Shown: positions 22,197-38,012, counted from the first letter of the stretch. The stretch is DNA of 38,492 nt from an uncultured Faecalibacterium sp. (GCA_964458915.1 CAYWKY010000001.1:1-38492), one strand, 5' to 3'. The notes: a model not told the origin generated them from the sequence alone. A program made the numbers and translations.

Positions 22197-24750
22197 CCAC
22201 GGCGAAGCTCTTGTAGAGCTTATCAACGGCTTACTTCCCGATCTCAAAGTTGAGGGTAAGGACGGTACCGTTCACGTAATCAAGGCTCTCAAGGAAGACT
22301 TCTTCATCGAACTTGCTAAGGCAGCAATTAAGGTTGACGTACCTAAGAACCCGGCTCTTAACGCCGAAGTTACTAAGTGGCACGTTGAAACAGGCGACAC
22401 ACTTATGTTCATCCTTGACACAGTTCTTACTAAGGACTTCCTTAACATTCTTTGCACTGCACTCGGTATCAACGCAAAGAATGAACAGGGCGAGGAAAAT
22501 CAGATTTATAACATCCTCATGTCACTCGTTGACAAGGAAGAGGAAATTCTTGACCTTCTCATTGACCTGCTTGCTAAGTACTTAGTTGAATATAAGGCTT
22601 ATAAGCAGCAGCCCATTGACAAGACTCAGATGACCTCAGAGAGTACAAACGAACAGTTTAACAGCATTGTTTCTAACCTTGACGCTCTTATCCCGACAAT
22701 CCTTAGCCTTGTTGGTCTTAAGGATTCAGAGGGCAAGGACGTAACAAGCCTTGAAGATCTTATCAATGGCTTCCTTAACGACTCAATTGCTGATATGCTC
22801 GTTGGCATGATCGCAGAGCTTCTCTCCGGTCTTAAAGCTGAGGATATAGATCCTATTCTCGGTTATGTACGCTCACTCACAAATCTCACCGACCTTGACA
22901 TAGCTCCCAAGGCATTCGCAAATGACTTCTTTGGCTCAAAGGTTAAGCAGTTCTTTGCTGATACAGCTGCGGCAGCAAATACAACAATCGACAAGCTCAC
23001 ATGGGCTCAGGTTTGGACACTTAACAGCCATGAGGTTACTGACGCTGAAGGCAAGGTAACTCGTGAATTTAACGGTTACAACTGGGGCGTTAAGAGTCTT
23101 CGCGACCTTATCAACCTTGTTTGCGACTTCATCAAGCCTCTTGATTGCGTACTCGCAGTACTCATTCAGGGTGGTCAGGTAGAATCAGAGTTTATCGCTA
23201 GCGGTAAAACATCAGTTGGTAAGCCAATCAGCGCTCTTGACGAAATCAACATCATGGGCGGTATGGGTTACAACTATGCAATCTTACCTCTTCTTGAACT
23301 CCTCGGCGTTGACGCTATGAGTCAGGATACATTCGATGCAACAGTACTCGAAAATAACGGTAGCGTTCTTTATCCGATACTTGATATGCTCGACACAGCT
23401 ATCTACGGCTCAATTGATTCAAATGGCAACAGACAGGACGACGGCATACTTAAGAACCCGATCAACTGGCTCACAAGTATCCTCGCTAACCTTTGCTACG
23501 TTCTCGGTAACGACGATATTACAACTATCGTTGACAACCTCATCGCTCCTGTTAACCAGCTTATCGCTAAGGTTGACAAGATAATCCCCATCGCTATTGA
23601 AATTAACCTCGGTTATATCAATACCGATAAGAAAGTTGTCCAGATGTACCTCGGTACTGAGCATCCGGGCATTGAATCCGGTATCCACATTATCGTTAAG
23701 GGCGACGACATCGCAGCATTGCTCGAAAATCTCCTTGCAACACTTGAGATTGAGGGTAAGGCTCTCGGCATTAAGGTTGACCTTGATTGGCTCGCACTTG
23801 TCGGTAAGGCAGGTAAGGACGCTAACGGTGACGGTAAGGTTGACTTCAGCAAGACAAGACTCGACGATAAGTTCGACATCTTCAACGGCACAACCTACAG
23901 CACAATCGTTGGCGACCCGGCTGACACCTTCGTAACACTTCTTGATGTTGTTATAGGTGAAAAGGGTGAAGACGGCAAGACTAACATCGATAGAATCCTC
24001 GAAGCTCTCGGCGTTGAACTCAGCCCCGAAATCAAGGATATTATCGACCAGGTAGTTGAAGATCCTTCAAAGATCATCGACCTTATCGCAGGTCTTCTCG
24101 GCGAAACAACCTATCAGCCTGTACAGAACAGACCTATCGCTGTTACCGGCGAAGATTATAGAGGCTATCTGACCTTCACAGAGCAAAACGCTGACATAAT
24201 CGCTAACAACCTTGACGCACTTATAGTTGACATTCTCAACGCAGCAGGCGTTGGTTCACTCAGAGGTCTTCTTGCACCGTATATTTCAAACAAGACTGTT
24301 AACCAGCTTCTTGATATGATTATCGGTCTGCTTGCAGGCGACTCAGTAGGACCTATCCTTGAAACAGTTGCAAGCCTCAACCTTGGCATTGAGATTCCGC
24401 TTACTCTTAAGTCATTCTCAGCTAAGATCAGCGAGCTTGCTAAGACAAGAAGCTACCTTAAGGGCATCGCTGCTCACCTTGAAAAGGCTGTTAAAGCCGG
24501 TGGCGACAACGCTAACTGGTCAAATGTAACTTCACTTCAGGAAGCTAACATTAATTGGGAAGTTACCGACGGTAACACCAACCAGTTCACACGTGCACTT
24601 GCAGGCTTCTTAACACCGCTTAACGATCTGTTTGAGCTTCTGCTTATCGGCGAAAGCACAGGCATTAAGCTTGACCTGTTAGGTATCGCTCAAATCGGTG
24701 GCGGTAACGGATATGATTACGCAATCATCCCGCTTCTCGAAGCTCTCGGC
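1698..24750 (+). repeat. Protein-level array of 14 diverged modules within the giant gene (not a DNA-identical repeat)
   Basis: Conserved cores (GGxGY..PLLEALG type) lie at 1698-1748, 3810-3863, 6000-6053, 7998-8051, 9843-9896, 11796-11852, 13674-13727, 15372-15425, 16929-16982, 18420-18473, 19941-19994, 21438-21491, 23254-23307 and 24697-24750. Each is followed about 40-60 aa later by a (L/I)-P-x-L-x-Y-F-x-x-S-(D/N)-G-L-x-x-x-V-x-N-L-L-x-P-V motif. Each is preceded by an F-T-D-D-M-(I/V)-N-x-L-x-x-L-(I/V)-G-L-L-x-G type helix. Confidence 0.85.
21808..22579 (+). repeat. Exact head-to-tail tandem duplication, unit 385 bp (2 copies plus 2 nt), inside the giant gene
   Basis: nt 21808-22194 appear identical by eye to nt 22193-22579 (offset 385). 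The identical shadow ORFs 21887..22087 and 22272..22472 confirm the offset. 385 is 3x128+1, so the reading frame shifts. The junction reads aag|tga, placing TGA at 22194-22196. There is a 2-nt GT microhomology at the junction. Confidence 0.95.
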
Positions 24751-25776
24751 TTCCCCGCAGAACAAGTTCTCACTCACAGACAGTTTATGACCGCTGTTGA
24801 GAAAGACGAGACTCAGCTTCTCGGCTACCTCCTTAACAAGGTTGCAGAGCTTGTTAATAAGATCCTTGACAGACCTATTGATACAATTCTCGGACTCCTT
24901 CCGAATCTTGCATACTTCTTCTCAAATGAAGGCTTACTGCTTACAGTTAAGAACCTCATTGCTCCGATCTACACAGTACTCATCACAGTAACAAATGTTC
25001 TTGGTGTTAATATTGAAAGCTATCTCAAGCTTGAAGAACTTCTTCACAGCATTGACCTTGGCATCGTAGTTGGTGAGAGCAAGTATGACTTCAGAATTCC
25101 TGTAATCGATTGGCATAAGCTTGCTACTAAGGGTGGCGACAAGGCTCAGGAGGTTAACACCTCACGTTCCTATGAAGCTAACTCCTATGTACAGGAAATG
25201 AAGGCTGATGAATATGCAGCTTACACTAAGGCTAATCCGGATGCAGCTCACAAGACAACTCAGAAGCATATCGTAGCCGATAAGGGCGATACACTTACTG
25301 TTATACTTGCATGGGTATTCGATATGTTCGGTGACGCACACAACAGAGAGGCACTTGTTCAGTGGATCGTAGACTTCTTCGATCTTAAGAGTGGTGCTGA
25401 AGAAACTGTAAGATATGCAATTAACCAGCTCTTCAACCAGGCTGAGATGAACAACTCAACTGATATTCTTGTATCAGCTCTTATGATTGCTCTCGGCGTA
25501 GGCGTTGGTGTTGACAAGGCTATTATGGGCGACATCAAGTCAATCGTTGAAATCTATCGCCAGCTCTTCGGAGCAATCGGTGACGGTTCAGGTTCAATCT
25601 ACGGTTCAATCGCATCCGCAATGGAAGAACTTACCGGCGTTTGGTACGATACAATCGGTACACCTGAAGAAGGCGATGACGTTAAGGACGAAGTTGAAGA
25701 AAACCTCAACTGGTTCCAGAGACTCTTTAAGAAGATTAAGGAATTCTTCCAGAAGATTTTCGGTATCTTTGGTTAA
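22195..25776 (+). CDS. 3' remainder of the same giant gene, shifted +1 by the duplication. It carries the last two modules plus a unique C-terminal tail. If the duplication is real, this piece is effectively a pseudogene fragment.
   Basis: From nt 22195 the translation reads DHGEALVELING..., identical to copy 1, then continues YLVEYKAYKQQ... to TAA at 25774-25776. The tracked ORF start at 21928 (MLRQQLRL...) is an out-of-frame reading of copy 1, not a real N-terminus. Deleting one 385-bp copy joins 57..25776 into 25335 nt, which is 8444 codons plus stop. Confidence 0.85.
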   Translation, partial: DHGEALVELINGLLPDLKVEGKDGTVHVIKALKEDFFIELAKAAIKVDVPKNPALNAEVTKWHVETGDTLMFILDTVLTKDFLNILCTALGINAKNEQGEENQIYNILMSLVDKEEEILDLLIDLLAKYLVEYKAYKQQPIDKTQMTSESTNEQFNSIVSNLDALIPTILSLVGLKDSEGKDVTSLEDLINGFLNDSIADMLVGMIAELLSGLKAEDIDPILGYVRSLTNLTDLDIAPKAFANDFFGSKVKQFFADTAAAANTTIDKLTWAQVWTLNSHEVTDAEGKVTREFNGYNWGVKSLRDLINLVCDFIKPLDCVLAVLIQGGQVESEFIASGKTSVGKPISALDEINIMGGMGYNYAILPLLELLGVDAMSQDTFDATVLENNGSVLYPILDMLDTAIYGSIDSNGNRQDDGILKNPINWLTSILANLCYVLGNDDITTIVDNLIAPVNQLIAKVDKIIPIAIEINLGYINTDKKVVQMYLGTEHPGIESGIHIIVKGDDIAALLENLLATLEIEGKALGIKVDLDWLALVGKAGKDANGDGKVDFSKTRLDDKFDIFNGTTYSTIVGDPADTFVTLLDVVIGEKGEDGKTNIDRILEALGVELSPEIKDIIDQVVEDPSKIIDLIAGLLGETTYQPVQNRPIAVTGEDYRGYLTFTEQNADIIANNLDALIVDILNAAGVGSLRGLLAPYISNKTVNQLLDMIIGLLAGDSVGPILETVASLNLGIEIPLTLKSFSAKISELAKTRSYLKGIAAHLEKAVKAGGDNANWSNVTSLQEANINWEVTDGNTNQFTRALAGFLTPLNDLFELLLIGESTGIKLDLLGIAQIGGGNGYDYAIIPLLEALGFPAEQVLTHRQFMTAVEKDETQLLGYLLNKVAELVNKILDRPIDTILGLLPNLAYFFSNEGLLLTVKNLIAPIYTVLITVTNVLGVNIESYLKLEELLHSIDLGIVVGESKYDFRIPVIDWHKLATKGGDKAQEVNTSRSYEANSYVQEMKADEYAAYTKANPDAAHKTTQKHIVADKGDTLTVILAWVFDMFGDAHNREALVQWIVDFFDLKSGAEETVRYAINQLFNQAEMNNSTDILVSALMIALGVGVGVDKAIMGDIKSIVEIYRQLFGAIGDGSGSIYGSIASAMEELTGVWYDTIGTPEEGDDVKDEVEENLNWFQRLFKKIKEFFQKIFGIFG

Positions 25777-25942: not shown

Positions 25943-26488
25943 TCAACCTAATTTATATACATATACTAAAAACGAAATCACAAAAAATATAGTGGAATAT
26001 ATCATAACAATAAGAGCTAAGTTTTTAATTGTTTTAAGCTCTATAGTTGAATTTGCTAATTCCTCCGGTGAAGCATTTTCATGATATTCGTTTCTGGCTT
26101 CAAGTATATCTTTAACTGAGCATGATATAACGATTATATCCAGAATAAAAATTATCATTAAGACAAACAATGAGAGAGCGAAGCCAACAAACTCATCGTT
26201 ATACAAGTTATCAATTGTATGAAGTATTTTTATTACAGGTAATGCCGCAGTTAAAGCAGTAAAAAAGGGTACCTTAAAAAAGATTTTTAGAAAGCTTTCG
26301 TTTATGATATATTTATATTTTGCAACGGGGCTTAGCGTTGACAAGTCAATAGTCGGCGCAGTGGTCTTCGGCATTTTCTCTCTCTTTGGCTTATCGTTAA
26401 ATGCCCATATAGCTATGCCGCTGTATATTAACAGCTCTATTAAATCAAAGAGTATGCCTATATCCTTGCTTGAGCTTTTCTTTGCCAT
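25943..26488 (-). CDS. Small integral membrane protein (about 4 predicted TM helices), function unknown
   Basis: 181-aa ORF with four hydrophobic stretches (IGILFDLIELLIYSGIAIWAF, FFKVPFFTALTAALPVIKIL, FVGFALSLFVLMIIFILDIIVISCSV, LALIVMIYSTIFFVISFLVYVY). AAGGAG lies 7 nt upstream of the ATG (26495-26500 on the - strand). The gene is AT-rich. No family recognised. Confidence 0.65.
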   Translation of the reverse strand: MAKKSSSKDIGILFDLIELLIYSGIAIWAFNDKPKREKMPKTTAPTIDLSTLSPVAKYKYIINESFLKIFFKVPFFTALTAALPVIKILHTIDNLYNDEFVGFALSLFVLMIIFILDIIVISCSVKDILEARNEYHENASPEELANSTIELKTIKNLALIVMIYSTIFFVISFLVYVYKLG

Positions 26489-26582: not shown

Positions 26583-29500
26583 TTATTTGTTTTCCTGAGT
26601 TCTTCCCATAACCTCAATCATATCCTTAATGCCGTCAACAGGGCTTCTGCCTTTGAGCCTGAAAACAACATAGGGTGCAGCTCCTGCGGCTTTAACCATT
26701 CCTTTGCCTGCCATATTGCCGGCTATTTCTACAATTCGCTCCGGCGGCAATTCGTTAAGATAGGCTATGATGCTGTCCTTATCCTGCTTTATCTCGTATA
26801 TGCCAAGGTTTGCCGCATAAGCTCGAAGCAGTGCCACATCAACAAGGCCCTTAACCGCCTTAGGCGGTTCACCAAAACGGTCAATAAGCTCGTCCATTAC
26901 GTCCATAGCATCTTCGCCTGTTTGGATAGATGCGATTCGTTTATACATAAATATTCTGTTTTTAACAGAGTCAATATAATCTTCGGGAATGTGTGCGTCA
27001 ACGCTGATGTCAACAACACATTCTCTTTTTTCTTTGACTTCTTCGCCGGTTTTCTCTTCTTCAATAGCTTCGCCTAAAAGCTGAAGGTACATATCATAGC
27101 CTACAGCTTCCATATGACCGTGCTGTTGTGAGCCTAAAATATTACCTGCACCTCTTATTTCAAGGTCACGCTGTGCAATTCTGAAGCCTGAACCAAATTG
27201 AGTGAACTCTTTAATAGCGCCAAGTCGCCTTTGAGCGATTTCGCTAAGTGCCTTTTGAGCGTTATAAGTGAAGTAGGCGAAGGCGCGTCTTTGGCTTCTG
27301 CCCACGCGACCTCTTATTTGGTGAAGTTGGGCAAGACCTAATCTGTCTGCGTCTTCAATAATAAGGGTGTTTGCGTTAGGTACGTCTACACCTGTTTCTA
27401 TAATAGTGGTGCAAACAAGAATATTTATCTCGTTTTCAAGCAGCTGTCTCCAAACCTCGCTTAGCTCCTCCTCGCTCATTTTGCCGTGACCGATGCCGAT
27501 TTTTGCGTCGGGGATAAGATCTTTGATTTGCGCCGCTGTTTTTTCAATAGTGTCAACCTTGTTGTGAAGATAATAAACCTGACCGCCTCTTCTAAGCTCT
27601 CTTTCCATAGCTTCGCTGAGTACCGCCATATTATGCGGCAGGACATAGGTTTGCACAGGATGTCTGCCCACAGGTGGAATCTCCAAAACCGACATATCTC
27701 TTATGCCTGCCATTGCCATGTTAAGGGTACGTGGGATAGGTGTAGCTGAAAGGGTCAAAACGTCCACCAAGGGGAATTTTTCCTTAAGCTTTTCTTTTTG
27801 AGCCACACCGAAACGCTGTTCCTCGTCAACGATTAGCAGACCTAAATCCTTAAAGGTTACACTTTTGGCAATAAGGGAATGAGTTCCCACTATTATGTCT
27901 ATGCTGCCTTGCTTTAAGCGCTTTTTGATTTTTGTGCGCTGAGTTGGTGTTCTAAAGCGTGAAATCATTTCAATTTCAACGGGGAAACCGTCAAAGCGTT
28001 TTTTTATGGTTTGATAATGCTGAAAAGCTAAGATAGTTGTGGGTACGAGAATAGCGCACTGCTTGCCGTCGGCTATGCACTTAAAGGCGGCTCGCAAGGC
28101 TACCTCAGTTTTGCCGAAGCCAACATCGCCGCAAAGGAGTCTATCCATAGGCGCATTTCTTTCCATGTCTCGCTTTATTTCATTGACAGCTTCTATTTGG
28201 TCATCGGTTTCCTCAAACTCAAAGCGACGCTCAAAGTCGTTTTGCATATCAATATCCGGCGAAAAAGCGTAGCCGGGGGTGTTCATTCTCTTTTGATATA
28301 TTTTTGTCAGCTCTGCCGCCATATCCTTTACGGCAGCTTTTACTCTTTTTTGAGTCTTTTTCCACTCGTCAGAGCCTAAACGGTTGAGCTTAACCGCCTT
28401 GTCGCTATCCTTTGGCGAAATATATTTGCTGATTAAATCCAGCTGAGTTACAGGCAGATAAAGCACATCTGTGCCACGGTAGTTGATTTTAATAAAGTCT
28501 TTTACTGCCGAGTCAACCTTCATGGTTTTTATGCCGTCAAAAACACCTATGCCGTAAATAGCGTGAACAATATAGTCCCCATTTGATATTTCCTCTAAGG
28601 AGGTTATTCCCTTGCCCTTTTTAAATTTTTTCTTTGGCTTTGCTGCTGTGTTGCCTGAGTTTTTGCCATAGGTAAAAAGGGTGAAGGAAAGGGAGTTATA
28701 TTCAAATCCTGAGCTTACAGTGCCGGCAAGAACACTTACACTGCCTTTGGGAAACTCGCCGGGTACAACAGGAAAATAGTGGGAAGAAAAGCCTTCGCTT
28801 TCTAAGTCATAAGACAGCTCTTTTGCGCTTTTTTCTGTGCCTGCCATAACAACAACGCTATATTTTCTTTTAATTAGAGGCTCAATATCCTCTGTCAGAT
28901 AGCTTAAAGTGCCGTCCCAACGGGCAAGCTGACCGGCTGTAACACTCACAAGCTCTTTAACGGGAATATCAAAAGAGCCTCGTGTCAGGTTATCCATGAA
29001 AATTGCACCATGCTTTGTGTAGCGGGAAGTGATTTCATTCCATGTAAGAGAATATGTGTCAATGCCCTTTGTCAGCACACCGTCCTCAAACATAGTACGC
29101 ACATCCTCTAAAAGAAGCTGATGCACTGAGGTGTATTTCTGCGCCGTTAAAGCACTTTCACAGACAAAGAGCAATCCGTCGTCAAGATAGTCGAAAACTG
29201 TACTAAGCTGCTCATAGGCTAAATCTAAATAGCGATCGCTTGCGCTGACATTAATATAGCGAGAAAGCTTTTCTATATCCTCGTTTATTGAGGCTTTGAC
29301 TTTGACGCTGCCTTTGCCCTTAACGGTTAAAACAAAGCTTTCTAACTTGGCTTTCATATCCTCGGCGCTGTCAAACAAAACCTCCATTGCCGGGGTGATG
29401 CTCACCTCGTCGAGAATATCAGTTCGTCTTTGTGTGTCCAGGTCAAAAAGGGAAATGGAATCTATAGTGTCGCCCCAAAATTCCAATCGCACAGGAGAAG

Positions 29501-30059
29501 AATATGAGGGCGGGAATATATCGATTATGCCGCCTCTTATTGAGAACTGTCCGGTACCCTCAACCTGGTCGGCTCTGACATAGCCTGCCGATAAAAGGGT
29601 ACGAATTATATTATGCTGCGATATATCCTCGCCGTTTGCCACAGTTAAAGTACGCTTTTTTAGCTCGTTTTTCGGCAAGGTCAGCTGCATTGCCGCCTCA
29701 ATGGAGCAAAGCACATATTTGCACCGACCGTTTAACATTTTTGTTAAAACACCTAATCGGCGCTGCTCAAACTCTCTGGACTGAGTATCGGAGGGCCTGA
29801 AATTATAGTCTCTTGCAGGGTAAACCACTGCATCTGAGGAAAAGGTGTTAATATCGTCGCACATTTTGCTGGCTGTGCCCTCATCGGGGCAAATTATAAG
29901 GCTCGTTTTGTTAAGCTCTTCGCAAAGCGACGATATATAGTGAGCCTTATGAACAGGCGTTAAGCCAATAACTCCCATAGGTACTCTGCCGCCTTTAACA
30001 GCCGAGAGTATACTCATATATTCGGCACTCTTCATGAGCACAGATGAAAAACCTGACAT
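26583..30059 (-). CDS. mfd: Transcription-repair coupling factor Mfd
   Basis: 1158 aa. It has a UvrB-homology N-terminal region and an RNAP-interaction region (DYIVHAIYGIGVF). The superfamily-2 translocase motifs are GDVGFGKTEVA (Walker A), DEEQRFGV (DExx box), LTLSATPIPRT and QLHQIRGRVGRS, with a TRCF C-terminal domain. An RBS (agaggtg) lies upstream of the ATG at 30059. Confidence 0.95.
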   Translation of the reverse strand: MSGFSSVLMKSAEYMSILSAVKGGRVPMGVIGLTPVHKAHYISSLCEELNKTSLIICPDEGTASKMCDDINTFSSDAVVYPARDYNFRPSDTQSREFEQRRLGVLTKMLNGRCKYVLCSIEAAMQLTLPKNELKKRTLTVANGEDISQHNIIRTLLSAGYVRADQVEGTGQFSIRGGIIDIFPPSYSSPVRLEFWGDTIDSISLFDLDTQRRTDILDEVSITPAMEVLFDSAEDMKAKLESFVLTVKGKGSVKVKASINEDIEKLSRYINVSASDRYLDLAYEQLSTVFDYLDDGLLFVCESALTAQKYTSVHQLLLEDVRTMFEDGVLTKGIDTYSLTWNEITSRYTKHGAIFMDNLTRGSFDIPVKELVSVTAGQLARWDGTLSYLTEDIEPLIKRKYSVVVMAGTEKSAKELSYDLESEGFSSHYFPVVPGEFPKGSVSVLAGTVSSGFEYNSLSFTLFTYGKNSGNTAAKPKKKFKKGKGITSLEEISNGDYIVHAIYGIGVFDGIKTMKVDSAVKDFIKINYRGTDVLYLPVTQLDLISKYISPKDSDKAVKLNRLGSDEWKKTQKRVKAAVKDMAAELTKIYQKRMNTPGYAFSPDIDMQNDFERRFEFEETDDQIEAVNEIKRDMERNAPMDRLLCGDVGFGKTEVALRAAFKCIADGKQCAILVPTTILAFQHYQTIKKRFDGFPVEIEMISRFRTPTQRTKIKKRLKQGSIDIIVGTHSLIAKSVTFKDLGLLIVDEEQRFGVAQKEKLKEKFPLVDVLTLSATPIPRTLNMAMAGIRDMSVLEIPPVGRHPVQTYVLPHNMAVLSEAMERELRRGGQVYYLHNKVDTIEKTAAQIKDLIPDAKIGIGHGKMSEEELSEVWRQLLENEINILVCTTIIETGVDVPNANTLIIEDADRLGLAQLHQIRGRVGRSQRRAFAYFTYNAQKALSEIAQRRLGAIKEFTQFGSGFRIAQRDLEIRGAGNILGSQQHGHMEAVGYDMYLQLLGEAIEEEKTGEEVKEKRECVVDISVDAHIPEDYIDSVKNRIFMYKRIASIQTGEDAMDVMDELIDRFGEPPKAVKGLVDVALLRAYAANLGIYEIKQDKDSIIAYLNELPPERIVEIAGNMAGKGMVKAAGAAPYVVFRLKGRSPVDGIKDMIEVMGRTQENK

Positions 30060-30168
30060 AAAGCTGACACCTCTTTCTTTTTAGCTTATCTTATTATTAT
30101 ATTATAAAACCGATTTAAAATAAAGGGGATAAAAGATTTTTTAACCTAAAAATAAAGTTTTTCTCCTT
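30060..30168. promoter_or_regulatory. AT-rich divergent intergenic region between mfd and the phage-derived module (promoters not resolved)
   Basis: 109 nt, AT-rich, between divergently oriented genes. A weak + strand candidate is ttagct (30081-30086), 16 nt, tataaa (30103-30108). No operator-like palindrome recognised. Confidence 0.35.
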
Positions 30169-30729
30169 TTGTTGCGAAAAAGCGGAAACTTAAGTAGGAC
30201 TACGCCATATTGTTGGGAGGCAAAACCCAAACTGAAAACGAAAGGAGCAATTAACATTAAAGAGTTAACTTCAAAAGAAAGGCTGTTTTGCACTTATTAC
30301 AGCCTGAACAGAAACCCAAGAGAGGCCGCTGTAAAATCCGGATATATGTTCCCGGAAAAATCTGCTTTGCGACTGCTGAAAAGAAAGGAAATAGCTGAAG
30401 AAATCGCTCGAATTGACAAGCAACGAAGGGCCACTGACAATGATGTTGCCTTAGGCTTTGCACGACTCGCCTTCGGCTGTGTCAGCGACGCAATTTCTTT
30501 GGCTTTCAAAGAGGATGTGACCGAAAGTGATATTGAAAAAATGGATCTTTTTAATATCGCTGAAATCAAAAGGAAAAAGGGCGGAGATATTGAAATTAAG
30601 TTTTTCGATCGCCTTAAGGCTTTAGAGAAGCTGACAGGTATAACCGCTGTCACACAGGAAAAGGAAAGCTCTATTTTTTCAGCTATAGAGAAAGGTGCTC
30701 TGGCTCTCGCAGATGAAAAGAGTGAGTAA
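30169..30729 (+). CDS. terS: Terminase small subunit (Terminase_2-like). The true start is probably downstream of the tracked TTG.
   Basis: The motif LTSKERLFCTYYSLNRNPREAAVKSGYMFPEKSALRLLKRKEIAEEI matches the classic terS pattern (LT-x-K-x-x-F-x-x-x-Y ... A-A-x-x-(A/S)-G-Y). It sits immediately upstream of terL. Start candidates are TTG 30169 (no RBS), CTG 30232 (GGGAGG 11 nt upstream) and ATT 30256 (AAAGGAG 8 nt upstream). Confidence 0.8.
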   Translation: MLRKSGNLSRTTPYCWEAKPKLKTKGAINIKELTSKERLFCTYYSLNRNPREAAVKSGYMFPEKSALRLLKRKEIAEEIARIDKQRRATDNDVALGFARLAFGCVSDAISLAFKEDVTESDIEKMDLFNIAEIKRKKGGDIEIKFFDRLKALEKLTGITAVTQEKESSIFSAIEKGALALADEKSE

Positions 30730-31987
30730 GGCACAATATGAGTTTTTCTCTAAAAAGCAACTGATAGCCCTGTCTTGGTGGCATAAGAATTCACCCTACA
30801 GCCACTACGATGCCATTATTTGCGACGGTGCAGTCAGAAGCGGAAAAACCACCTGTATGGCTCTTTCCTTTGTCACATGGGCATTTTATGAGTTTCAAGA
30901 CACTTCCTTTGCACTTTGCGGCAAAACTGTCACAGCTCTTAAAAGGAATATAGTTGTTCCACTTTTAAGCACACTAAGAGAGCTTGGTTTTGATTGTAAA
31001 GAGAAGCTGTCACAAAACCTGATTATTATTTCCTATGGCAAAAGAAGCAACAGATTTTATCTTTTCGGCGGTAAGGACGAAGGCTCTGCCGCACTGATTC
31101 AAGGCATGACCTTGGGCGGTGTTCTTCTTGACGAAGTGGCTTTAATGCCTCGCTCCTTTTGTGAGCAGGCACTTGCAAGATGCTCGTTGCCTCACTCGAA
31201 ATTTTGGTTCAACTGCAACCCGGAAAACCCTATGCACTGGTTTTATGAGCAGTGGATAAAAAAGGCTGAGGAAAAAAACTGTCTTTATCTTCACTTTTTA
31301 ATGGCTGATAATCCTTCCTTGAGCGAAGATATTATAAGACGGTATGAAAGTCTTTACAGCGGCACATTTTATGAACGCTTTGTTTTGGGCAAGTGGGTTG
31401 CAGTTGACGGTCTTGTCTACCCTGAAAACGCAAAGGGCAAATATATTGAAAAGCCTCCCGTCAATTGTTTTGACAAATATTATGTCTCTTGCGATTATGG
31501 CACAGTGAACCCCACATCTATGGGATTGTGGGGTCTTCACGGCGGTGTGTGGTACCGCTTCGACGAATTTTATTTTTCCTCAAAGCTTGAGGGCAGACAG
31601 CTCACAGACGAGGAGTATTATGAAAAGCTTTTAGCTTTCACTGATAATCTGAGCATAGAGGCGGTGATAATAGACCCCTCCGCCGCCTCTTTTATAGAGT
31701 GTATCCGCCGTCACGGTAAATTTAGAACCATTAAAGCGAAAAACGATGTGACAGACGGTATTCGCAAGGTTCAAAGCGCTTTCAGACAAGGGCAAATAAT
31801 AGTTTCACCTGTTTGCAAAGCCGCAATAAAGGAATTTTCTCTTTATCGCTGGGACGAAAGCGCAGGAAAGGATGTGCCGAAAAAGGAAAACGATCACGCA
31901 ATGGACGAAATAAGATATTTCGTTTCAACTATTCTGTCACAGGAAAAACAAGAGGACTTCTTTGTTATTTCCGCACAGAGGTCCTAA
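30695..31987 (+). CDS. terL: Terminase large subunit (PBSX / Terminase_3-like)
   Basis: Walker A is DGAVRSGKTT and Walker B is GGVLLDEVALM. The C-terminal RNase H-like nuclease shows acidic motifs (VSCDYGTVNP, VIIDPSAASF, NDHAMDEIRYF). The gene overlaps the terS stop. The start is GTG 30695 or ATG 30713. Confidence 0.88.
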   Translation: MLWLSQMKRVSKAQYEFFSKKQLIALSWWHKNSPYSHYDAIICDGAVRSGKTTCMALSFVTWAFYEFQDTSFALCGKTVTALKRNIVVPLLSTLRELGFDCKEKLSQNLIIISYGKRSNRFYLFGGKDEGSAALIQGMTLGGVLLDEVALMPRSFCEQALARCSLPHSKFWFNCNPENPMHWFYEQWIKKAEEKNCLYLHFLMADNPSLSEDIIRRYESLYSGTFYERFVLGKWVAVDGLVYPENAKGKYIEKPPVNCFDKYYVSCDYGTVNPTSMGLWGLHGGVWYRFDEFYFSSKLEGRQLTDEEYYEKLLAFTDNLSIEAVIIDPSAASFIECIRRHGKFRTIKAKNDVTDGIRKVQSAFRQGQIIVSPVCKAAIKEFSLYRWDESAGKDVPKKENDHAMDEIRYFVSTILSQEKQEDFFVISAQRS

Positions 31988-32003
31988 GAGAAAGGAGATT
32001 ATT

Positions 32004-33161
32004 TTGGCAATAGGTAAGCATAAAAAACAGCCTATAACTCAATCGGCGCTGGCAGTACCGCAAACAGGCAAAGTGGCTCACCCGTTTTTAAGCCTTGGCT
32101 CATATACACCTGAGAGAGCCTGCGATGCGGCTTTATATCGCTGCCTTCGTGAAGCCATACCCGTTATTGATGCGGCGATAATGAAAACCGTCAGGCTTTT
32201 AGGCTCATTTCAGGTTATTTGTCAGGACAAGCAAGCCGAAGCCCCACTTAATGAGTTTTTGCAAAATGTCAATGTGGGCGGTACCCGACAAGGTGTTGAA
32301 TCTTTTATTTCCACCTATTTTGAGCAGCTTTTAACCTATGGCACTGCCGTTGGCGAAATGGTTATAGGCGCAGGCACTGTCACCCACCTTTATAACAGCG
32401 ACCTGTCCGATGTTTCGCTAAGCTATGGCGACTCCCCCTTAGATGTGCGTGTTTCCTCCCTTAACAGGGACGGAAGCTTTACGCCGGTGAAATATCCTGC
32501 GCTGATTCTTTTAACTGCCCACAACCCTGAGCCGGGCAAGCTTTACGGCACATCTATTTTAAAAGGGTTGCCTTTTGTCAGCGATATTCTTTTGAAGATT
32601 TACAACACTGTGGGAATCAACTGGGAGCGCCTTGGCAATGTCCGCTTCGCTGTAACCTATAAGCCACAAAACGATGCCGTTGACAAGGCATATGCCAAAG
32701 AGCGTGCTATGCAGGTGGCAACGGAGTGGAGCCGTACCATGCAAAGCGGTTCCACTGTCAGAGATTTTGTTGCCGTTGGCGATGTGAACATAAAAACCAT
32801 AGGCGCTGACAATCAGATTCTTGACAGTGATGTCCCCGTCAGACAGCTTCTTGAGCAAATTGTGGCGAAAATGGGTATTCCGCCCTTTTTGTTAGGTCTT
32901 AGCTGGTCAACAACAGAGCGTATGAGCAGTCAGCAGGCTGACATTCTGACTAGTGAAATTGATTTTTATCGCCGTGAGTTGACCCCGGTGATAAGAAAAA
33001 TCTGCCATATGTTTTTGCGGCTTAACGGTTTTGACACAGGCTTCACCGTTGAGTGGGACGATGTAACCTTACAGGATATTTGCGAAATTTCAAAGAGCAA
33101 CTATTACGATGCTCAAGCAAAACAAATTCTTTCACAGTTAGGAGGAAATGAGACTGAATAA
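32004..33161 (+). CDS. Portal protein (about 385 aa, HK97-size class)
   Basis: It sits directly after terL and has portal-typical size. I prefer the TTG start at 32004 (AAAGGAG plus a 6-nt spacer) over the tracked 31962 start, which overlaps the end of terL. The assignment rests mainly on synteny. Confidence 0.7.
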   Translation: MAIGKHKKQPITQSALAVPQTGKVAHPFLSLGSYTPERACDAALYRCLREAIPVIDAAIMKTVRLLGSFQVICQDKQAEAPLNEFLQNVNVGGTRQGVESFISTYFEQLLTYGTAVGEMVIGAGTVTHLYNSDLSDVSLSYGDSPLDVRVSSLNRDGSFTPVKYPALILLTAHNPEPGKLYGTSILKGLPFVSDILLKIYNTVGINWERLGNVRFAVTYKPQNDAVDKAYAKERAMQVATEWSRTMQSGSTVRDFVAVGDVNIKTIGADNQILDSDVPVRQLLEQIVAKMGIPPFLLGLSWSTTERMSSQQADILTSEIDFYRRELTPVIRKICHMFLRLNGFDTGFTVEWDDVTLQDICEISKSNYYDAQAKQILSQLGGNETE

Positions 33162-34101
33162 CAATCAATTATCCTTAGAAAAAGAGCTGGAAATGATAAA
33201 TAATTACACTCGAAGACCTTTAGAAGAAAAGGACGTATATATTTTCACCCTTACTCTTTGCGACAATGAGGTTGACAGAGACTTCGAGTGCTTCACCAAG
33301 GAATCCCTTCTCGCTTTAAAGCAGTTATTTGTGGGCAAGACGGGAATTTCCGACCACAGTATGCGCTCAAAGGATCAAAGTGCAAGAATATTCCGCTGCT
33401 ATATTGAGCAGGACGACAACAAGCTCACCTCATATGGCGAGAAATATATGGCTGTTAAAGCGAGAGCTTATATGCTAAGAACCGACAGCAACGCCGAGCT
33501 TATAGCCGCCATTGACGGCGGAATCAAAAAAGAGGTCAGTGTCAGCTGTAGTGCCTCGGACAGTATTTGCAGCATTTGTTCAAAGAGTATGCGCTCCAAC
33601 GAATGTTCTCACATTAAAGGCAGGGTCTATAAGGGCAAGACCTGCTACGCAAGGCTGGAGAACATAACAGATGCCTATGAGTGGTCCTTTGTCGCCGTAC
33701 CCGCCCAGCGACAGGCAGGGGTCAGCAAGGCTTTTGAAATAAAAAAGAAAAGCAATCTTCAATCAAAGGATATTATTAAGTCCATATCCGGCGGCGCTAT
33801 TTTAACTTCGCAGGACGCAAAGGAAATAGCCGATTATATTATCAAGCTGGAAAAGGCTGCCGAGGAGGGCGAAAATTACAAAAAGCAGCTCATTTGCGAC
33901 ATAACACGCTATTCTTTAATAATTATGCCCGGTGTCAGCTCAAAGCAATTCGCTCAGGGCTGTGTCAACATGAACACGGCAGACCTTGAAAAGCTTAAAG
34001 ACGATATGGAAAAGCAGGCGAACACTATTGTACCCCTTTCCATTCAGCTAAAGCCCTGCCAAGAGAAAAAAAGAGAAATTAACACTGATTTTATAATTTA
34101 A
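33148..34101 (+). CDS. Putative prohead protease fused to a scaffold-like C-terminal region
   Basis: It lies between the portal and capsid genes. The N-terminal half resembles the HK97-type (S78) pattern: GISDH ... AELIAAIDGGIKKEVSVSCS, giving candidate His and Ser about 60 aa apart. The C-terminal third is charged and coiled-coil-like (KLEKAAEEGENYKKQL, LEKLKDDMEKQANT). The start overlaps the portal stop. Confidence 0.55.
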   Translation: MRLNNNQLSLEKELEMINNYTRRPLEEKDVYIFTLTLCDNEVDRDFECFTKESLLALKQLFVGKTGISDHSMRSKDQSARIFRCYIEQDDNKLTSYGEKYMAVKARAYMLRTDSNAELIAAIDGGIKKEVSVSCSASDSICSICSKSMRSNECSHIKGRVYKGKTCYARLENITDAYEWSFVAVPAQRQAGVSKAFEIKKKSNLQSKDIIKSISGGAILTSQDAKEIADYIIKLEKAAEEGENYKKQLICDITRYSLIIMPGVSSKQFAQGCVNMNTADLEKLKDDMEKQANTIVPLSIQLKPCQEKKREINTDFII

Positions 34102-34115
34102 GGAGGATTTTTATT

Positions 34116-34457
34116 ATGTACCCCAAACTTAACGGCTTTAACACAAAAGAGGTTACTCTTTACACAGATTCAAAAATCAAAGTCGGCTCTACAGTGATGC
34201 TTGAAGCAAATTGCAAAGCTGTTTTACCGGCTTCAGATGCAAAATTCTGCGGCGTTTGCACAGATGCAAGAGGCAACTATATTACCGTCGCTCTTTCAGG
34301 CTTCGTTCAGTTGCCATATACCGGCACCGCACCCACAGTAGGCTATAACAATCTCGCTTGCGACGGAAACGGCAACGCTAAAGTTAGCGAAAAGGGCAGA
34401 GAAATTCTCGTTGCCGAGGTTGACACCACAAACAAAACAATATCAATTATTCTCTAA
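34116..34457 (+). CDS. Small head protein (decoration / gpD-position, DUF2190-like?)
   Basis: 113 aa with a strong RBS (AAGGAGG plus 9 nt). It lies between the scaffold and major capsid genes, as gpD does in lambda-type layouts. The call is based on position only. Confidence 0.35.
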   Translation: MYPKLNGFNTKEVTLYTDSKIKVGSTVMLEANCKAVLPASDAKFCGVCTDARGNYITVALSGFVQLPYTGTAPTVGYNNLACDGNGNAKVSEKGREILVAEVDTTNKTISIIL

Positions 34458-34478
34458 TAAAACGGGAGGTAAAATAAC

Positions 34479-35480
34479 ATGACATTCGACAACATTAAAC
34501 TTGAAAAAGGACTTTACGGCACGGGCAAATCCTTCACTCAGGCTCTTGAAAGCATTGACCCAAGCGAAAATTATATTGGCACTGCTTTAGAGGGTCTTGA
34601 CGCATATCAGCGTCAGCTTAAGCGTTTCGACATTAAGGTCAGCGGCAGAAACAGCGACACAATCGAAAAGTTTTTTAAGACCTCAGACTCAGCGGCTCTT
34701 TTCCCGGAATATGTTTCAAGAGCTGTCGCTCAAGGCATTGAGCAAACTGATTTAGTGTCTAAAATAATTGCCACAACCACAACTATTGAGGGCATGGATT
34801 ATCGTACCATAGCTTCAATCCCCGGCGATGAGCATATGCCTAAGGTGGTTAATGAGGGCGCAGTTATCCCCGAAACAAAAATAACCACTCAGGAAAACCT
34901 TGTTAAGCTTCACAAGCGAGGCAGAATTTTATCCGCTTCCTATGAGGCTATTCGCTTCCAGCGCCTTGACCTTTTCACTGTCACTCTCAAGCAAATCGGT
35001 GCTGCCATTGCAAGAGCTCAGTTAGGCGACGCTATTTCAGTTCTCAAAAACGGTGACGGCAACGGCAATGCCGCCGAGAAAATTTCACTTTCCGGCTCAT
35101 CAATGAGCTATAACGACCTTGTGGACTTCTGGAACAAGTTTTCTCCATATAACCTTTCAACTATTATCGCTTCGCCTGATATGCTTTCACAAATTCTTAA
35201 AATGAGCGAATTTAGAGACGCTTATACAGGTCTCGACTTTCACGCAAGCGGAAAGCTTGTCACTCCCTTTGGTGCAGAGCTTTATAAAAGCAGTGAGCTT
35301 AACAGCAAGGAGCTTCTCGGTCTTGACAAGAGCTGCGCTTTGGAAAAGGTTGTTTCCGACTCTGTTATTACAGAATACGACAAGCTTATTGACCGCCAGC
35401 TTGAAAGAGCATCTATTACAGCTATTGCAGGCTTTGCTAAAATTTACGGCGACGCATCTAAGCTTCTCGCCGTCGCCTAA
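34479..35480 (+). CDS. Major capsid protein, HK97 fold (no delta domain)
   Basis: 333 aa with an RBS (GGGAGG plus 9 nt). The central pattern VVNEGAVIPETKIT..NLVKLHKRGRILSASYEAIRFQRLDLFTVTLKQIGAAIARAQLGDAISVLKNGDG resembles the Phage_capsid family signature. The synteny also fits. Confidence 0.75.
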   Translation: MTFDNIKLEKGLYGTGKSFTQALESIDPSENYIGTALEGLDAYQRQLKRFDIKVSGRNSDTIEKFFKTSDSAALFPEYVSRAVAQGIEQTDLVSKIIATTTTIEGMDYRTIASIPGDEHMPKVVNEGAVIPETKITTQENLVKLHKRGRILSASYEAIRFQRLDLFTVTLKQIGAAIARAQLGDAISVLKNGDGNGNAAEKISLSGSSMSYNDLVDFWNKFSPYNLSTIIASPDMLSQILKMSEFRDAYTGLDFHASGKLVTPFGAELYKSSELNSKELLGLDKSCALEKVVSDSVITEYDKLIDRQLERASITAIAGFAKIYGDASKLLAVA

Positions 35481-35492
35481 GGGTGATAAGCT

Positions 35493-35855
35493 ATGATAAC
35501 TGTCAGCGATGTTTATTCGGCTCTTTGCGCCTATGAAACATCAAAGGAACACACCGGTGAGGAGCTGTTTCCCTGCTGTGAAAGGGGTCTTGCCTGGGTC
35601 AAGGCAAGACTCAAGGAGGGTACAGACGAAAACGACCCGCTTATAACACAAACGGCGGCTGCCATTGCTGATTTCTATTTTTTTATAAGACGATTCAGCG
35701 ACACAGACAGCTACGAAAGCTATAAAGCCGGCGATATGACTGTTAAAAGAAACCCGGAAAAGGAAATGAGACTTGCAATTGAAAAGCGTGCCCTTGCAAT
35801 AGCGGAGGCAAGCTCAATTTTAAAAGACGGAGGCTTTTACTGCTGTGGCAAATAA
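35493..35855 (+). CDS. Putative head-tail connector (gp6-like position)
   Basis: 120 aa, first gene after the capsid gene, helical and acidic, typical adaptor size. Position-based call. Confidence 0.4.
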   Translation: MITVSDVYSALCAYETSKEHTGEELFPCCERGLAWVKARLKEGTDENDPLITQTAAAIADFYFFIRRFSDTDSYESYKAGDMTVKRNPEKEMRLAIEKRALAIAEASSILKDGGFYCCGK

Positions 35856-36186
35856 AGTGTTAAAAAACAAGCTTTTTGACAAATACGGGCTTAAAATGTC
35901 CTATATATCTGCCACAGACAGGGAAAGCTACGATTTCTTCGCCTTTTTGCAGCCTTTAAGGTATAAAAACAAGCTATATCTCAGCGGAGTACCAACAGAG
36001 CTGGGATATGACGGACTTAATAAATATCTTCTTATTTGTGACCCGTCTATTGATTTAAAGAGTATAGACGGGATAAATTATCGCCTTGGTTTTAACGGCA
36101 GCTATTTTGGGGTTGACCACCATGAGATAGTTTATAAAATGTGCCGACCGCTTTATATGTGGGCCATAGTTCATAGGGAGGGCTAA
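35845..36186 (+). CDS. Hypothetical neck/head-closure-size protein
   Basis: 113 aa with a GTG start that overlaps the preceding stop (GGAGG 11 nt upstream). No motif recognised. Confidence 0.4.
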   Translation: MANKVLKNKLFDKYGLKMSYISATDRESYDFFAFLQPLRYKNKLYLSGVPTELGYDGLNKYLLICDPSIDLKSIDGINYRLGFNGSYFGVDHHEIVYKMCRPLYMWAIVHREG

Positions 36187-36187
36187 G

Positions 36188-36580
36188 ATGATTTTTTCAA
36201 CAAATCTAATAACAAGCCTAATTGAATATATTAACCAGGACGATAAGCTCTCGCTTTTGGGTAAGGCAATAAGAGCCTATGACACTGAGGGCTTGCCCGT
36301 ACCGATAAGAGAGACCTATTTATCCTTTTCCTGCAAAGAAAACTCCGTCATTTTCTCGGACACAGGCGAAACTAATGAAATTACCGTCAAGCTCAACTGC
36401 TTTTCACCTTTGAGTAAAGCTGCCTATGGCGCACATAGTATAGCGGAAAAGGTGACCGCCGGGCTTTGTAAAGGCTTTGGCACAAGCATAACAGCCTTTA
36501 GCGTTGGCGACACAGAGTATGACGACGATATTAAAAGCTACAAAATAACAGCCATAATAAAATTCAAGTATGTTTCGTGA
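36188..36580 (+). CDS. Hypothetical neck / tail-completion-like protein (last gene of the module)
   Basis: 130 aa with an RBS (AGGGAGG plus 5 nt). The start is 1 nt after the previous stop. Its size and N-terminal pattern (L..L..Y...D..L..L.G.IRAYD....P.P) are reminiscent of DUF3168/gp10-type neck proteins. Weak call. Confidence 0.4.
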   Translation: MIFSTNLITSLIEYINQDDKLSLLGKAIRAYDTEGLPVPIRETYLSFSCKENSVIFSDTGETNEITVKLNCFSPLSKAAYGAHSIAEKVTAGLCKGFGTSITAFSVGDTEYDDDIKSYKITAIIKFKYVS

Positions 36581-36607
36581 GCAGATAAAATAGAATAAAC
36601 CAATTAA

Positions 36608-36645
36608 GGGAGCATTTGGCATTAATTTGTCGGGTGCTCCCTTTT
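36608..36645 (+). terminator. Possible terminator ending the phage-derived module
   Basis: The stem gggagca (36608-36614) pairs with tgctccc (36635-36641) and can be extended to 9 bp. It is followed by tttt. The 20-nt loop is large, so this is a weak call. Confidence 0.4.
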
Positions 36646-36667
36646 GTCATTTGCCAAAAGCTAAAAG

Positions 36668-36696
36668 TTGATTTTTTTGCTCTAATATAGTATAAT
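36668..36696 (+). promoter_or_regulatory. Near-consensus sigma-A promoter for obg
   Basis: TTGATT (36668-36673), a 17-nt spacer, then TATAAT (36691-36696). It lies 45 nt upstream of the obg ATG. The RBS AAGGAGG is at 36726-36732. Confidence 0.6.
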
Positions 36697-36740: not shown

Positions 36741-38012
36741 ATGTTTATAGATAAAGCCGTAATTAAAATTAAAGCCGGTGACGGTGGCAACGGCGCTGTT
36801 GCTTTTCACCGTGAAAAATATGTAGCTTCCGGCGGACCTGACGGCGGTGACGGCGGTAAGGGTGGCGATATTGTCTTTGAGGTTGACGATAATTTATCCA
36901 CACTGGCGGATTTTAAATATAAAAGAAAATATAAAGCGCCTAACGGTATGGACGGACAAGGCGGAAGACGAAACGGAAAAAAAGGTGAGGATCTTGTTAT
37001 AAGAGTTCCCAGAGGTACTATTATCAGGGAAAAAGAAAGCGGTACACTTATGGCGGATATGTCTGACGACGATTCCTTTATTGCTGCAAAGGGTGGCAGA
37101 GGCGGTTGGGGTAACAGCCATTTCGCAACACCCACAAGACAGACACCGCGTTTCGCAAAGGGCGGCACGCCAGGCGAGGAATGGGAGGTTGTTCTTGAAT
37201 TAAAGCTTCTTGCCGATGTGGGACTTTTAGGCTTCCCCAATGTGGGCAAATCCAGCTTTATTTCTGTTGTCAGCCAAGCTAAGCCTATTATTGCCGACTA
37301 TCATTTCACAACAATAACCCCGGTTTTAGGTGTGGTTTCAATGGGCGAAGGCAACTCCTTTGTTATCGCTGATATACCCGGCCTTATTGAGGGTGCAAGC
37401 GAGGGTATCGGTTTGGGTCACGCTTTTTTAAGACATGTTGACAGATGCAGAATGCTCGTTCATATTGTTGACGTTGCAGGTAGCGAGGGCAGAGACCCGA
37501 AAGAGGATTTTGAGAAAATCAATCTTGAGCTTGAAAGATTTAATCCGGAGCTTGCTCAAAGACCCCAAATAGTTGTGGGCAACAAAATTGACCTTGCAAG
37601 CGAGGAGCAAAGAGAAGAATTTAAAAGCTATATTGAAAATCAAGGCTATAAATATTTCGAGATGTGTGCGCCTATTACTATGGGTACAAAAGAGGTTATC
37701 GACGCTGTTGCGGCTATGCTCAGTACCCTGCCGCCGGTAAAACGCTACGAGAGCGAAGAAATTCCCATGGAAACTCTTCTTTCAAAGCAAAACACAGGCT
37801 TTACAATCGAGGTGGAGGACGACGTTTATATTGTTGAAGCGCCTTGGCTTATTAAAATTATTTGCCGTACCGACCTTGATGACTATGAATCCTTGCAATA
37901 TTTCCAGCGTGTACTTATTTCCAGCGGAATCATTGACGCTCTGAGAGAAAAGGGCATACAAGAAGGGGATATAGTCAGCATATACGATTATGAATTTGAG
38001 TTTATGAACTAA
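36741..38012 (+). CDS. obg: GTPase Obg/CgtA
   Basis: It has the Gly-rich Obg fold N-terminus (GGDGGNGAVAFHREKYV..GGPDGGDGGKGGD). GTPase motifs are G1 GFPNVGKSS, G3 DIPGLIEGA and G4 GNKID. The C-terminal OCT-like extension is typical of Firmicutes. Confidence 0.95.
   Translation: MFIDKAVIKIKAGDGGNGAVAFHREKYVASGGPDGGDGGKGGDIVFEVDDNLSTLADFKYKRKYKAPNGMDGQGGRRNGKKGEDLVIRVPRGTIIREKESGTLMADMSDDDSFIAAKGGRGGWGNSHFATPTRQTPRFAKGGTPGEEWEVVLELKLLADVGLLGFPNVGKSSFISVVSQAKPIIADYHFTTITPVLGVVSMGEGNSFVIADIPGLIEGASEGIGLGHAFLRHVDRCRMLVHIVDVAGSEGRDPKEDFEKINLELERFNPELAQRPQIVVGNKIDLASEEQREEFKSYIENQGYKYFEMCAPITMGTKEVIDAVAAMLSTLPPVKRYESEEIPMETLLSKQNTGFTIEVEDDVYIVEAPWLIKIICRTDLDDYESLQYFQRVLISSGIIDALREKGIQEGDIVSIYDYEFEFMN

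Follow-up and report, generated by a model that had tools for sequence, protein, structure and literature searches.

A long-conserved, tail-less phage head operon of gut Clostridia as a candidate gene transfer agent-like locus

A 6.4 kb operon of phage-type head and packaging genes lies between the core genes mfd and obg in a 38,492-nucleotide stretch of DNA from an uncultured Faecalibacterium sp. (GCA_964458915.1, CAYWKY010000001.1:1-38492), the whole of which is referred to here as the window. The operon encodes a full procapsid set (portal, protease-scaffold and HK97-type capsid protein), the small and large terminase subunits (TerS and TerL) for DNA packaging and, for the portal vertex, at least an adaptor and a ring protein of the terminator fold. 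It has no genes for mobility, replication, regulation, tail tube, baseplate or lysis, and it is selected at a fixed site across many species. Because this tail-less operon has been kept intact for a very long time in gut Clostridia (Acutalibacteraceae), it is most likely gene transfer agent (GTA)-like and not a dead prophage. With belief and doubt about equally balanced, we read it as a domesticated, vertically inherited head and packaging locus, the capsid half of an Acutalibacteraceae GTA-like system whose baseplate and lysis locus would be unlinked. The original prediction made for this sequence had offered three readings, namely the capsid locus of a GTA-like domesticated system, a minimal capsid-forming phage satellite, and a recent deletion remnant of a prophage. 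The first fits best of the three, and the GTA of Faecalibacterium prausnitzii (FpGTA) is its published analogue.

Gene content and predicted structures

The module consists of nine contiguous plus-strand open reading frames (ORFs; 30169-36580) with no internal stops and with overlapping or short junctions. It is separated from the start of mfd by 109 nucleotides (nt) and from the start of obg by 160 nt. The original prediction had described an intact module for packaging, procapsid and neck formation, bounded by core genes within about 110-160 nt. This description stands, since profile searches back the TerS, TerL, portal and capsid assignments as well as both boundary genes (Table 1). TerL scores 188 bits against the PBSX-family model TIGR01547 (cut-off 105, E 2.9e-55), and the portal reaches 36.9 bits against PF04860, slightly below the cut-off. 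There is no HNH gene in the module.

The protein encoded after the portal (317 amino acids, aa) has a protease part at about residues 10-190, with a Cys/His insertion, and H70 and S131 are invariant across 45 homologues. No match was found in Pfam (even at E up to 10), NCBIfam or PDB sequences, and its AlphaFold model (predicted local distance difference test, pLDDT, 88.7) has no PDB fold match. The model does match BFVD models annotated as prohead serine protease or COG3740 head maturation protease (E 4e-21 to 1e-7). Since residues 221-294 are modelled as long helices, the protein is read as a probable protease-scaffold fusion, in which these helices would have the scaffold role. The family comprises 1914 clusters at 50% identity.

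Two small proteins follow the capsid gene. The 120-aa adaptor has been assigned through its family: of its 26 aligned homologues, nine match phrog_541 "head-tail adaptor" (best E 5e-5). No family match was obtained with the window protein, and a PDB-chain profile search and Pfam at E up to 10 were empty. The protein of 35845-36186 is kept in all module types and has the invariant motif PLRYKNK.YL, with no match in Pfam (E up to 10), PHROGs, NCBIfam or PDB sequences. Its position would suit a stopper or head closure protein, which stays a guess because a PHROGs scan of its homologues gave no consistent family.

The last gene is predicted to encode the alpha/beta terminator fold of gpU, gp17 and p142. 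A Foldseek search of PDB with the model of the 130-aa protein gave 34 matches at E<=1e-3, nearly all of them neck or tail-terminator chains. These include lambda gpU (3fzb, template modelling (TM) score 0.65), RcGTA (6tba_4A, TM 0.69, the highest), T5 p142, the lambda tail cap 8iyd, SPP1 gp17, and the collars of diffocin, pyocin and monocin. By tradition the tail terminator counts with the tail side of a particle; it forms a hexameric ring, which caps the tail tube and is docked to the head stopper. The module is therefore head, neck and terminator, and not strictly head-only as the original prediction had it, and it has no tube.

Table 1. Features of the operon and its borders. dN/dS, ratio of nonsynonymous to synonymous substitution against nine orthologous modules
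Feature	Position	Strand	Evidence and remarks	dN/dS
Leader/promoter region	30060..30255	+	hairpin copy, conserved box, ribosome-binding site; alignments of 17 and 28 type-A leaders and inverted-repeat scan	
TerS, small terminase subunit (start most likely ATT)	30256..30729	+	PF03592 3.5e-15; phrog_2606/51	0.07-0.16
TerL, large terminase subunit, PBSX family	30713..31987	+	PF03237 8e-15; phrog_2 4e-46	0.03-0.10
Portal protein	31962..33161	+	phrog_30703 3e-129	
Prohead protease with C-terminal helical scaffold-like domain (predicted)	33148..34101	+	317 aa; AlphaFold and BFVD matches	
Small beta-rich virion protein	34116..34457	+	113 aa; phrog_4588 "virion structural protein" 1.5e-21	
Major capsid protein, HK97-type, Phage_capsid_4 family	34479..35480	+	PF25209 3e-17; phrog_3922 2e-98	0.08-0.14
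Head-tail adaptor, assigned through family	35493..35855	+	120 aa	0.05-0.14
Small conserved neck-region protein	35845..36186	+	113 aa	0.01-0.16
Tail-terminator-fold protein, last gene (predicted)	36188..36580	+	130 aa; AlphaFold pLDDT 87.6	0.07-0.15
Intrinsic transcription terminator	36606..36653	+	16-pair stem, then T-rich tail; closes operon; also given as 36606-36643	
obg promoter-like site TTGATT-17-TATAAT	36668-36696		after operon terminator	
mfd	26583..30059	-	left boundary, outside element; TIGR00580 1043 bits; conserved neighbour in clade	
obg	36741..38012	+	right boundary, outside element; NF008955 546 bits	

Distribution, selection and inheritance

The capsid protein has at least 8000 database homologues, and its relatives occur in at least 393 GTDB species (one genome per species). 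Loci were compared by fetching the best 80 of the 393 GTDB stretches with a capsid relative and mapping the nine window proteins onto the fetched loci (numbered L). These best 80 are all gut metagenome-assembled genomes, labelled Acutalibacteraceae, Oscillospiraceae, Ca. Fimenecus, Acutalibacter or "Clostridia bacterium". One gene order is found throughout, and the three versions of the module are told apart by the last gene, which encodes 130 aa in type A (the type of the window), 145 aa in type C and 279 aa in type B. Carriers include GCA_054282865.1 (type A) and the chromosome OZ007023.1 (type C). The 145-aa protein is homologous to the 130-aa terminator (hhalign 89.5%, E 2e-6), and the N-terminal half of the 279-aa protein aligns with it colinearly but weakly (37%, E 3.6e-4). 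Last proteins of about 270-280 aa in B-type loci (L020, 5588-11434; L070-L123) carry an extra C-terminal domain of about 140 aa, and two type-A modules share the long last protein (L069, 11710-12522; L079, 11712-12524).

At the genome loci, with the exception of L090, the module is a lone operon, and its neighbours are ordinary host genes, mostly on the opposite strand. They include mfd, MgtE, ABC transporters with MarR, nitroreductase, GH31, GH92, MatE, an fn3 protein, MFS, PSP1 and a tRNA synthetase. Among the annotated recurrent neighbour families of the fetched loci there is no gene for an integrase, for replication or for a repressor. One same-species contig runs 10 kb further right than the window and has only housekeeping genes there; the 38.5 kb window and these 10 kb showed no gene for a tube, sheath, tape measure or baseplate, and none for lysis, an integrase, replication or a repressor. 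The original prediction of a locus free of integrase, replication, repressor and lysis genes is thus extended beyond the right end of the window.

Selection was estimated by comparing the window with nine orthologous type-A modules. The dN/dS range is given as 0.03-0.34 for all nine genes, with the row of the 35845-36186 protein reaching down to 0.01; the corresponding values for mfd are 0.05-0.07, and dS is about 1 or saturated. All nine genes are under strong purifying selection. The highest values (0.20-0.34) are those of the small virion protein of 34116-34457, possibly a decoration protein, which has no BLAST match in L049, L052, L053, L056, L065, L068, L012 or the C-type loci.

The site has been conserved together with the genes. 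Of the 31 type-A loci, 20 have mfd adjoining the module or within 4 kb of it, and many of the remainder break off before the neighbouring gene; the linkage persists down to about 65% mfd identity. Across 17 species, taken from these 20 loci and having usable sequences of both mfd and module, pairwise distances for mfd and for TerL, portal and major capsid protein, which extend up to about 0.33-0.35 for both, are correlated with a Mantel r of 0.85 that none of 2000 permutations reached. This pattern looks like long vertical co-inheritance at a fixed site, by which a recent deletion remnant is ruled out. Maintenance, which the original prediction had argued from intact reading frames, is supported by both dN/dS and mfd linkage. 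Two of the features by which a GTA or viriform is recognized are found here, namely phage-derived genes for structure and packaging that come with none for integration, excision or replication, and vertical inheritance at a conserved locus under purifying selection. By definition GTA particles also carry pieces of host DNA too short for the whole encoding system, and their adsorption or tail device and lysis functions are encoded somewhere in the genome.

More distant relatives, in which the capsid protein is 55-60% identical, run downstream into genes for a LysM protein, a hub, a gp25-like wedge, Baseplate_J and a Mu gp48-like protein. In two genera this D-type element is an operon of about 10 kb between DegV and HflX/argG. 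One such operon is in the complete 2.9 Mb Caproicibacterium record CP135996.1 (L125, 5755-16059), and the other is on a 165 kb metagenome contig with a capsid protein named for Thermocaproicibacter melissae (L126, 5705-15787). Neither operon has an integrase, lysis, tube, sheath or tape-measure gene, and the D-type element may be a podovirus-like GTA of bacteria that are cultured or related to cultured ones. In a neighbour-joining tree of TerL, portal and major capsid protein, rooted at its midpoint, the D-type branch lies outside the clade into which every tail-less module of types A, B and C falls; type A forms a monophyletic group. The natural series from head with baseplate to head with terminator only allows one to ask how a domesticated particle loses or outsources its tail. 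Cultured relatives with the baseplate-bearing version are available in Caproicibacterium, Caproiciproducens and Thermocaproicibacter.

Known systems and competing explanations

The closest analogue of the operon is FpGTA, in which a head operon and an operon for baseplate, fibre, receptor-binding protein, holin and endolysin lie 125 kb apart, and whose particles have 40 nm capsids, no identifiable tails and 8.4-8.9 kb of DNA (Borodovich et al., Nat Commun 2026; PMC12946183). Both belong to gut Oscillospirales, in sister families. Both have a chromosomal head operon without integrase or replication genes, with no long tail beside it and with tail-side and lysis genes not linked to the head genes. 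The FpGTA head operon is near-ubiquitous in Faecalibacterium. Despite these likenesses, operon I of FpGTA has 10 ORFs in about 10 kb, compared with nine in 6.4 kb here, and the FpGTA capsid protein is of the N4-gp56 family with a Prp-like neighbour, whereas the operon here has a PF25209/HK97-type capsid protein and a serine prohead protease-scaffold. The window capsid protein has no match in NCBIfam, including the N4-gp56 family model. Direct homology to FpGTA was rejected since the capsid families differ, and the operon is therefore a different lineage.

RcGTA-type agents of Alphaproteobacteria are similarly domesticated, vertically inherited and under purifying selection, with an adaptor-stopper-terminator neck and a multilocus "genome", and chain 4A of the virion structure 6tba is a fold match of the last gene here. 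Their main cluster goes on to genes for tube, tape measure and baseplate, while the operon here stops at the terminator; they belong to another phylum and have no sequence-level relationship to it. PBSX of Bacillus subtilis, which packages host DNA, shares the TerL family TIGR01547, and PBSX-like XkdP, XkdQ, XkdS and XkdT baseplate genes (LysM, hub, wedge and Baseplate_J) are found in the D-type outgroups. At about 28 kb, PBSX forms one cluster that includes genes for sheath, tube, tape measure, lysis and repressor, none of which the operon here has.

If the operon is the capsid half of a GTA-like system, a subpopulation of cells would express it on some signal, and the AUA, AUU or AUC (AUH) start codon described below would keep TerS translation low. 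The terminase would package host DNA by a headful mechanism, and the capsids would be closed by the adaptor, the 113-aa protein (35845-36186) and the terminator ring. Release, and any device for adsorption or delivery, would be supplied in trans. The likeliest source would be an unlinked chromosomal baseplate and lysis operon, as in FpGTA and RcGTA, and this is favoured because the nearest outgroups carry LysM, hub, wedge and Baseplate_J genes directly after the head genes. A Baseplate_J pattern search for such unlinked operons was empty, the alignment being too divergent, and single-protein Baseplate_J scans of IMG/VR and JGI metagenomes returned no relatives.

Several points weigh against this reading. 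The 10 kb on either side of all A, B and C genome loci (about 80 genomes), and about 30 kb upstream and 12 kb downstream in the species of the window, showed no gene for tail, baseplate or lysis. The N-terminal Terminase_2 region is retained in the TerS here, whereas the FpGTA TerS is said to be without a DNA-binding domain, and packaging could therefore be site-initiated and not random. The tree that sets the D-type branch apart is midpoint-rooted only. Maintenance is not universal either, as two contigs (L010, 6599-9986; L011, 545-3932) have an in-frame TerL-portal fusion (815 aa) and an N-truncated protease; because this state is found in two independent samples, one module lineage appears to be decaying or being remodelled. 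Finally, for FpGTA the particles, proteome, packaged DNA and second operon have been seen, whereas the lineage described here is known from its genes.

A related possibility, doubtful but not far-fetched, is that the operon is a host-owned, family-wide capsid and terminase machine that dispenses with a tail of its own and retains on the chromosome, at a fixed site, just the head, neck and terminator ring, its DNA-filled heads docking onto the tails of unrelated elements or onto tailocin-like structures, or serving tail-less. If true, it would add a new lineage of GTA and a novel architecture of host-controlled transduction in abundant gut Clostridia, with AUA/AUU/AUC initiation of TerS as an unusual built-in throttle.

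Phage-inducible chromosomal islands of the capsid-forming kind (cf-PICIs) were reportedly described by Alqurainy et al. in 2023. They are islands of 10-18 kb with integrase, replication and regulation modules and an exclusive packaging module, without lysis or tail genes (He et al., 2025 preprint; 10.1101/2025.02.11.637232). Tail piracy in their manner from a fixed chromosomal site, in which DNA-filled capsids made by the operon join the tails of a helper phage, is unlikely in our view. Under this explanation a resident or infecting helper would switch the operon on, tails would be joined inside the cell or after release, and helper lysis would free the particles; since the element is capable of neither excision nor replication, its packaging would begin in situ and take the flanking host DNA along, as lateral transduction does. 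The gene set is indeed that of a cf-PICI packaging module (10.1101/2025.02.11.637232): both come with a terS, terL, portal, protease, capsid, adaptor and connector of their own, though the operon is without the HNH gene that cf-PICIs often have, and neither has lysis genes or a complete tail module, the terminator being the single tail-side gene here. cf-PICI capsids are likewise made without tails. Tail genes were seen near none of the tail-less loci, the TerS N-terminal region is kept, and the tail-facing last gene is the most variable (130, 145 or 279 aa), which recalls the swapping of cf-PICI adaptors and connectors for tail specificity. In addition, similar head-plus-lysis clusters in Butyricicoccaceae and Pelethomonas have been likened to capsid-forming satellites (2026 preprint; 10.64898/2026.07.08.737213). 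Against this, no integrase, recombinase or GIY-YIG endonuclease is found in the module and its annotated neighbours, and no replication or regulation module (repressor, AlpA), the operon starting at terS right after the mfd intergenic region. A mobile satellite would not be expected to keep a fixed site and to co-diverge deeply with mfd. Helper tails bring their own terminator, so that one encoded by the element is unexpected, and the outgroup relatives own baseplate genes. For the missing modules, the fixed position and the vertical-looking inheritance, the minimal cf-PICI of the original prediction was not retained.

It is less probable still that the particle consists entirely of the products of these nine genes, as a capsid sealed by the terminator cap and used tail-less for something other than injection-type delivery, such as releasing protected DNA for natural transformation or biofilm, or hindering infecting phages, whose packaging and tails would be competed for or misdirected. 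In about 80 genomes the operon has no other phage-like genes linked to it, a strong terminator ends it, and the extra domain of about 140 aa (B-type, L069 and L079) could be a minimal distal structure; FpGTA particles also have no identifiable tails (PMC12946183). No system of this kind is known, however, the terminator fold normally caps a tube, and the baseplate-bearing relatives argue that an adsorption device is ancestral. A decaying prophage remnant that recently lost its tail, lysis and lysogeny modules is scarcely credible, even though its genes amount to part of a tailed-phage genome, L010 and L011 carry a fused TerL-portal and a truncated protease, and the leader hairpin of the window is degenerate compared with its relatives. 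The same truncated set is present in at least 80 species, and in none of the related genomes examined is the site occupied by a full prophage. For each of the nine genes dN/dS lies within 0.03-0.34 at saturated dS, the module co-diverges with mfd, and att-like direct repeats flanking the module were looked for and not found. The remnant reading in the original prediction was accordingly dropped.

Capsid-packaged Oscillospirales DNA is abundant in virus-like particle (VLP) fractions from the gut, and for most taxa the loci are not known (PMC12946183; 10.64898/2026.07.08.737213). GTA-like packaging has been reported in other Oscillospirales with no locus identified (PMC12946183), and Acutalibacteraceae DNA has been found in VLP fractions (10.64898/2026.07.08.737213). 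The operon is a concrete and easily recognized candidate locus for such DNA. As the capsid half of a GTA-like system, it would also mark many "incomplete prophage", IMG/VR and GenBank "phage" records as chromosomal GTA-like loci.

TerS start codon, leader and surrounding DNA

The original prediction had the module begin at 30169, a TTG to which the terS ORF is open upstream. Judged from the sequence, the start of terS is most likely ATT 30256, behind the ribosome-binding site GAAAGGAG at 30240-30247. Type-A TerS start codons sit 7-9 nt past the conserved GAAAGGAG, and in 29 loci they are ATA (13), ATC (6), ATT (3), ATG (5) or other (2), a count that leaves out the window's own ATT and in which L010 and L011 are the same element. 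Five type-A loci have an in-frame stop 0-1 codons upstream, so that no upstream terS start is possible there. The conserved TerS N-terminus KELTSKE.LFC begins exactly at the AUH start position. B- and C-type terS genes start with ATG, TTG or GTG. Because of the non-AUG AUH start, gene callers extend the type-A gene upstream or truncate it to 133 aa.

The type-A leader contains an inverted repeat with perfect arms of 7-13 bp in relatives, followed by a T-run, with covariation in the outer bases of the arms; the hairpin resembles a terminator or attenuator. In the window the copy is degenerate, with arms of 5 bp (CTTTT 30166-30170, AAAAG 30178-30182). RNAalifold found no structure in hand-cut leader slices, which were poorly registered, so the hairpin is proposed from direct reading of the sequences. 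After the hairpin comes a box with the consensus TAT(T/A)(A/G)GT-GGGAGG, present in the window as CTACGCCATATTGTTGGGAGG at 30200-30220. Most type-A relatives (L009, 4900-5318; L045-L060) have a minus-strand gene of about 34 aa (MKEFLEKYWDEIVA...) between mfd and terS, with a perfect TTGACA-17-TATAAT promoter; the window does not have this gene.

The base composition of the module resembles that of its surroundings. The window has no tRNA genes, so none brackets the module, and an Rfam scan gave no match. The obg gene adjoins the module only in contigs of the window's own species, and relatives have an fn3 protein or MatE in its place. The mfd-module-obg layout recurs in same-species metagenome contigs that carry an identical capsid protein (seven places) and in contigs with an identical downstream RNase III-like protein (three places), at least one contig being common to both look-ups.

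Some IMG/VR B-type loci have a sigma/HTH (helix-turn-helix) regulator, an endolysin and a holin after the 279-aa gene. In L012, a plus-strand trio of 276 aa, 81 aa and a Phage_holin_6_1 holin (16768-18158) lies about 4.7 kb downstream of a type-A module and might be a detached lysis cassette. The GenBank record MT835508.1 (L008), named "Bacteriophage sp.", is a bacterial chromosomal fragment that carries the head module. Other MT83xxxx "Bacteriophage sp." records and many IMG/VR uncultivated viral genomes (L013-L044) are likewise chromosomal, with the module flanked by host genes such as MarR, ABC transporters, MCRA, TetR and MgtC. The virome origin of such records was set aside as evidence of packaging, as the scaffolds may have been deposited merely for their capsid genes.

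Upstream of mfd, a giant gene (57-25776) appears in the window as two ORFs in different frames, 57-22196 (7379 aa) and 21928-25776 (1282 aa), with no Pfam domains in the parts tested. In the same-species contig L002 it is called as one gene of 9660 aa, with an implied start about 3.2 kb before the window, and the window copy may contain frameshifts or sequencing errors. Between the giant gene and mfd lies a minus-strand ORF of 181 aa (25943-26488), which has no Pfam or NCBIfam match and is kept in same-species contigs.

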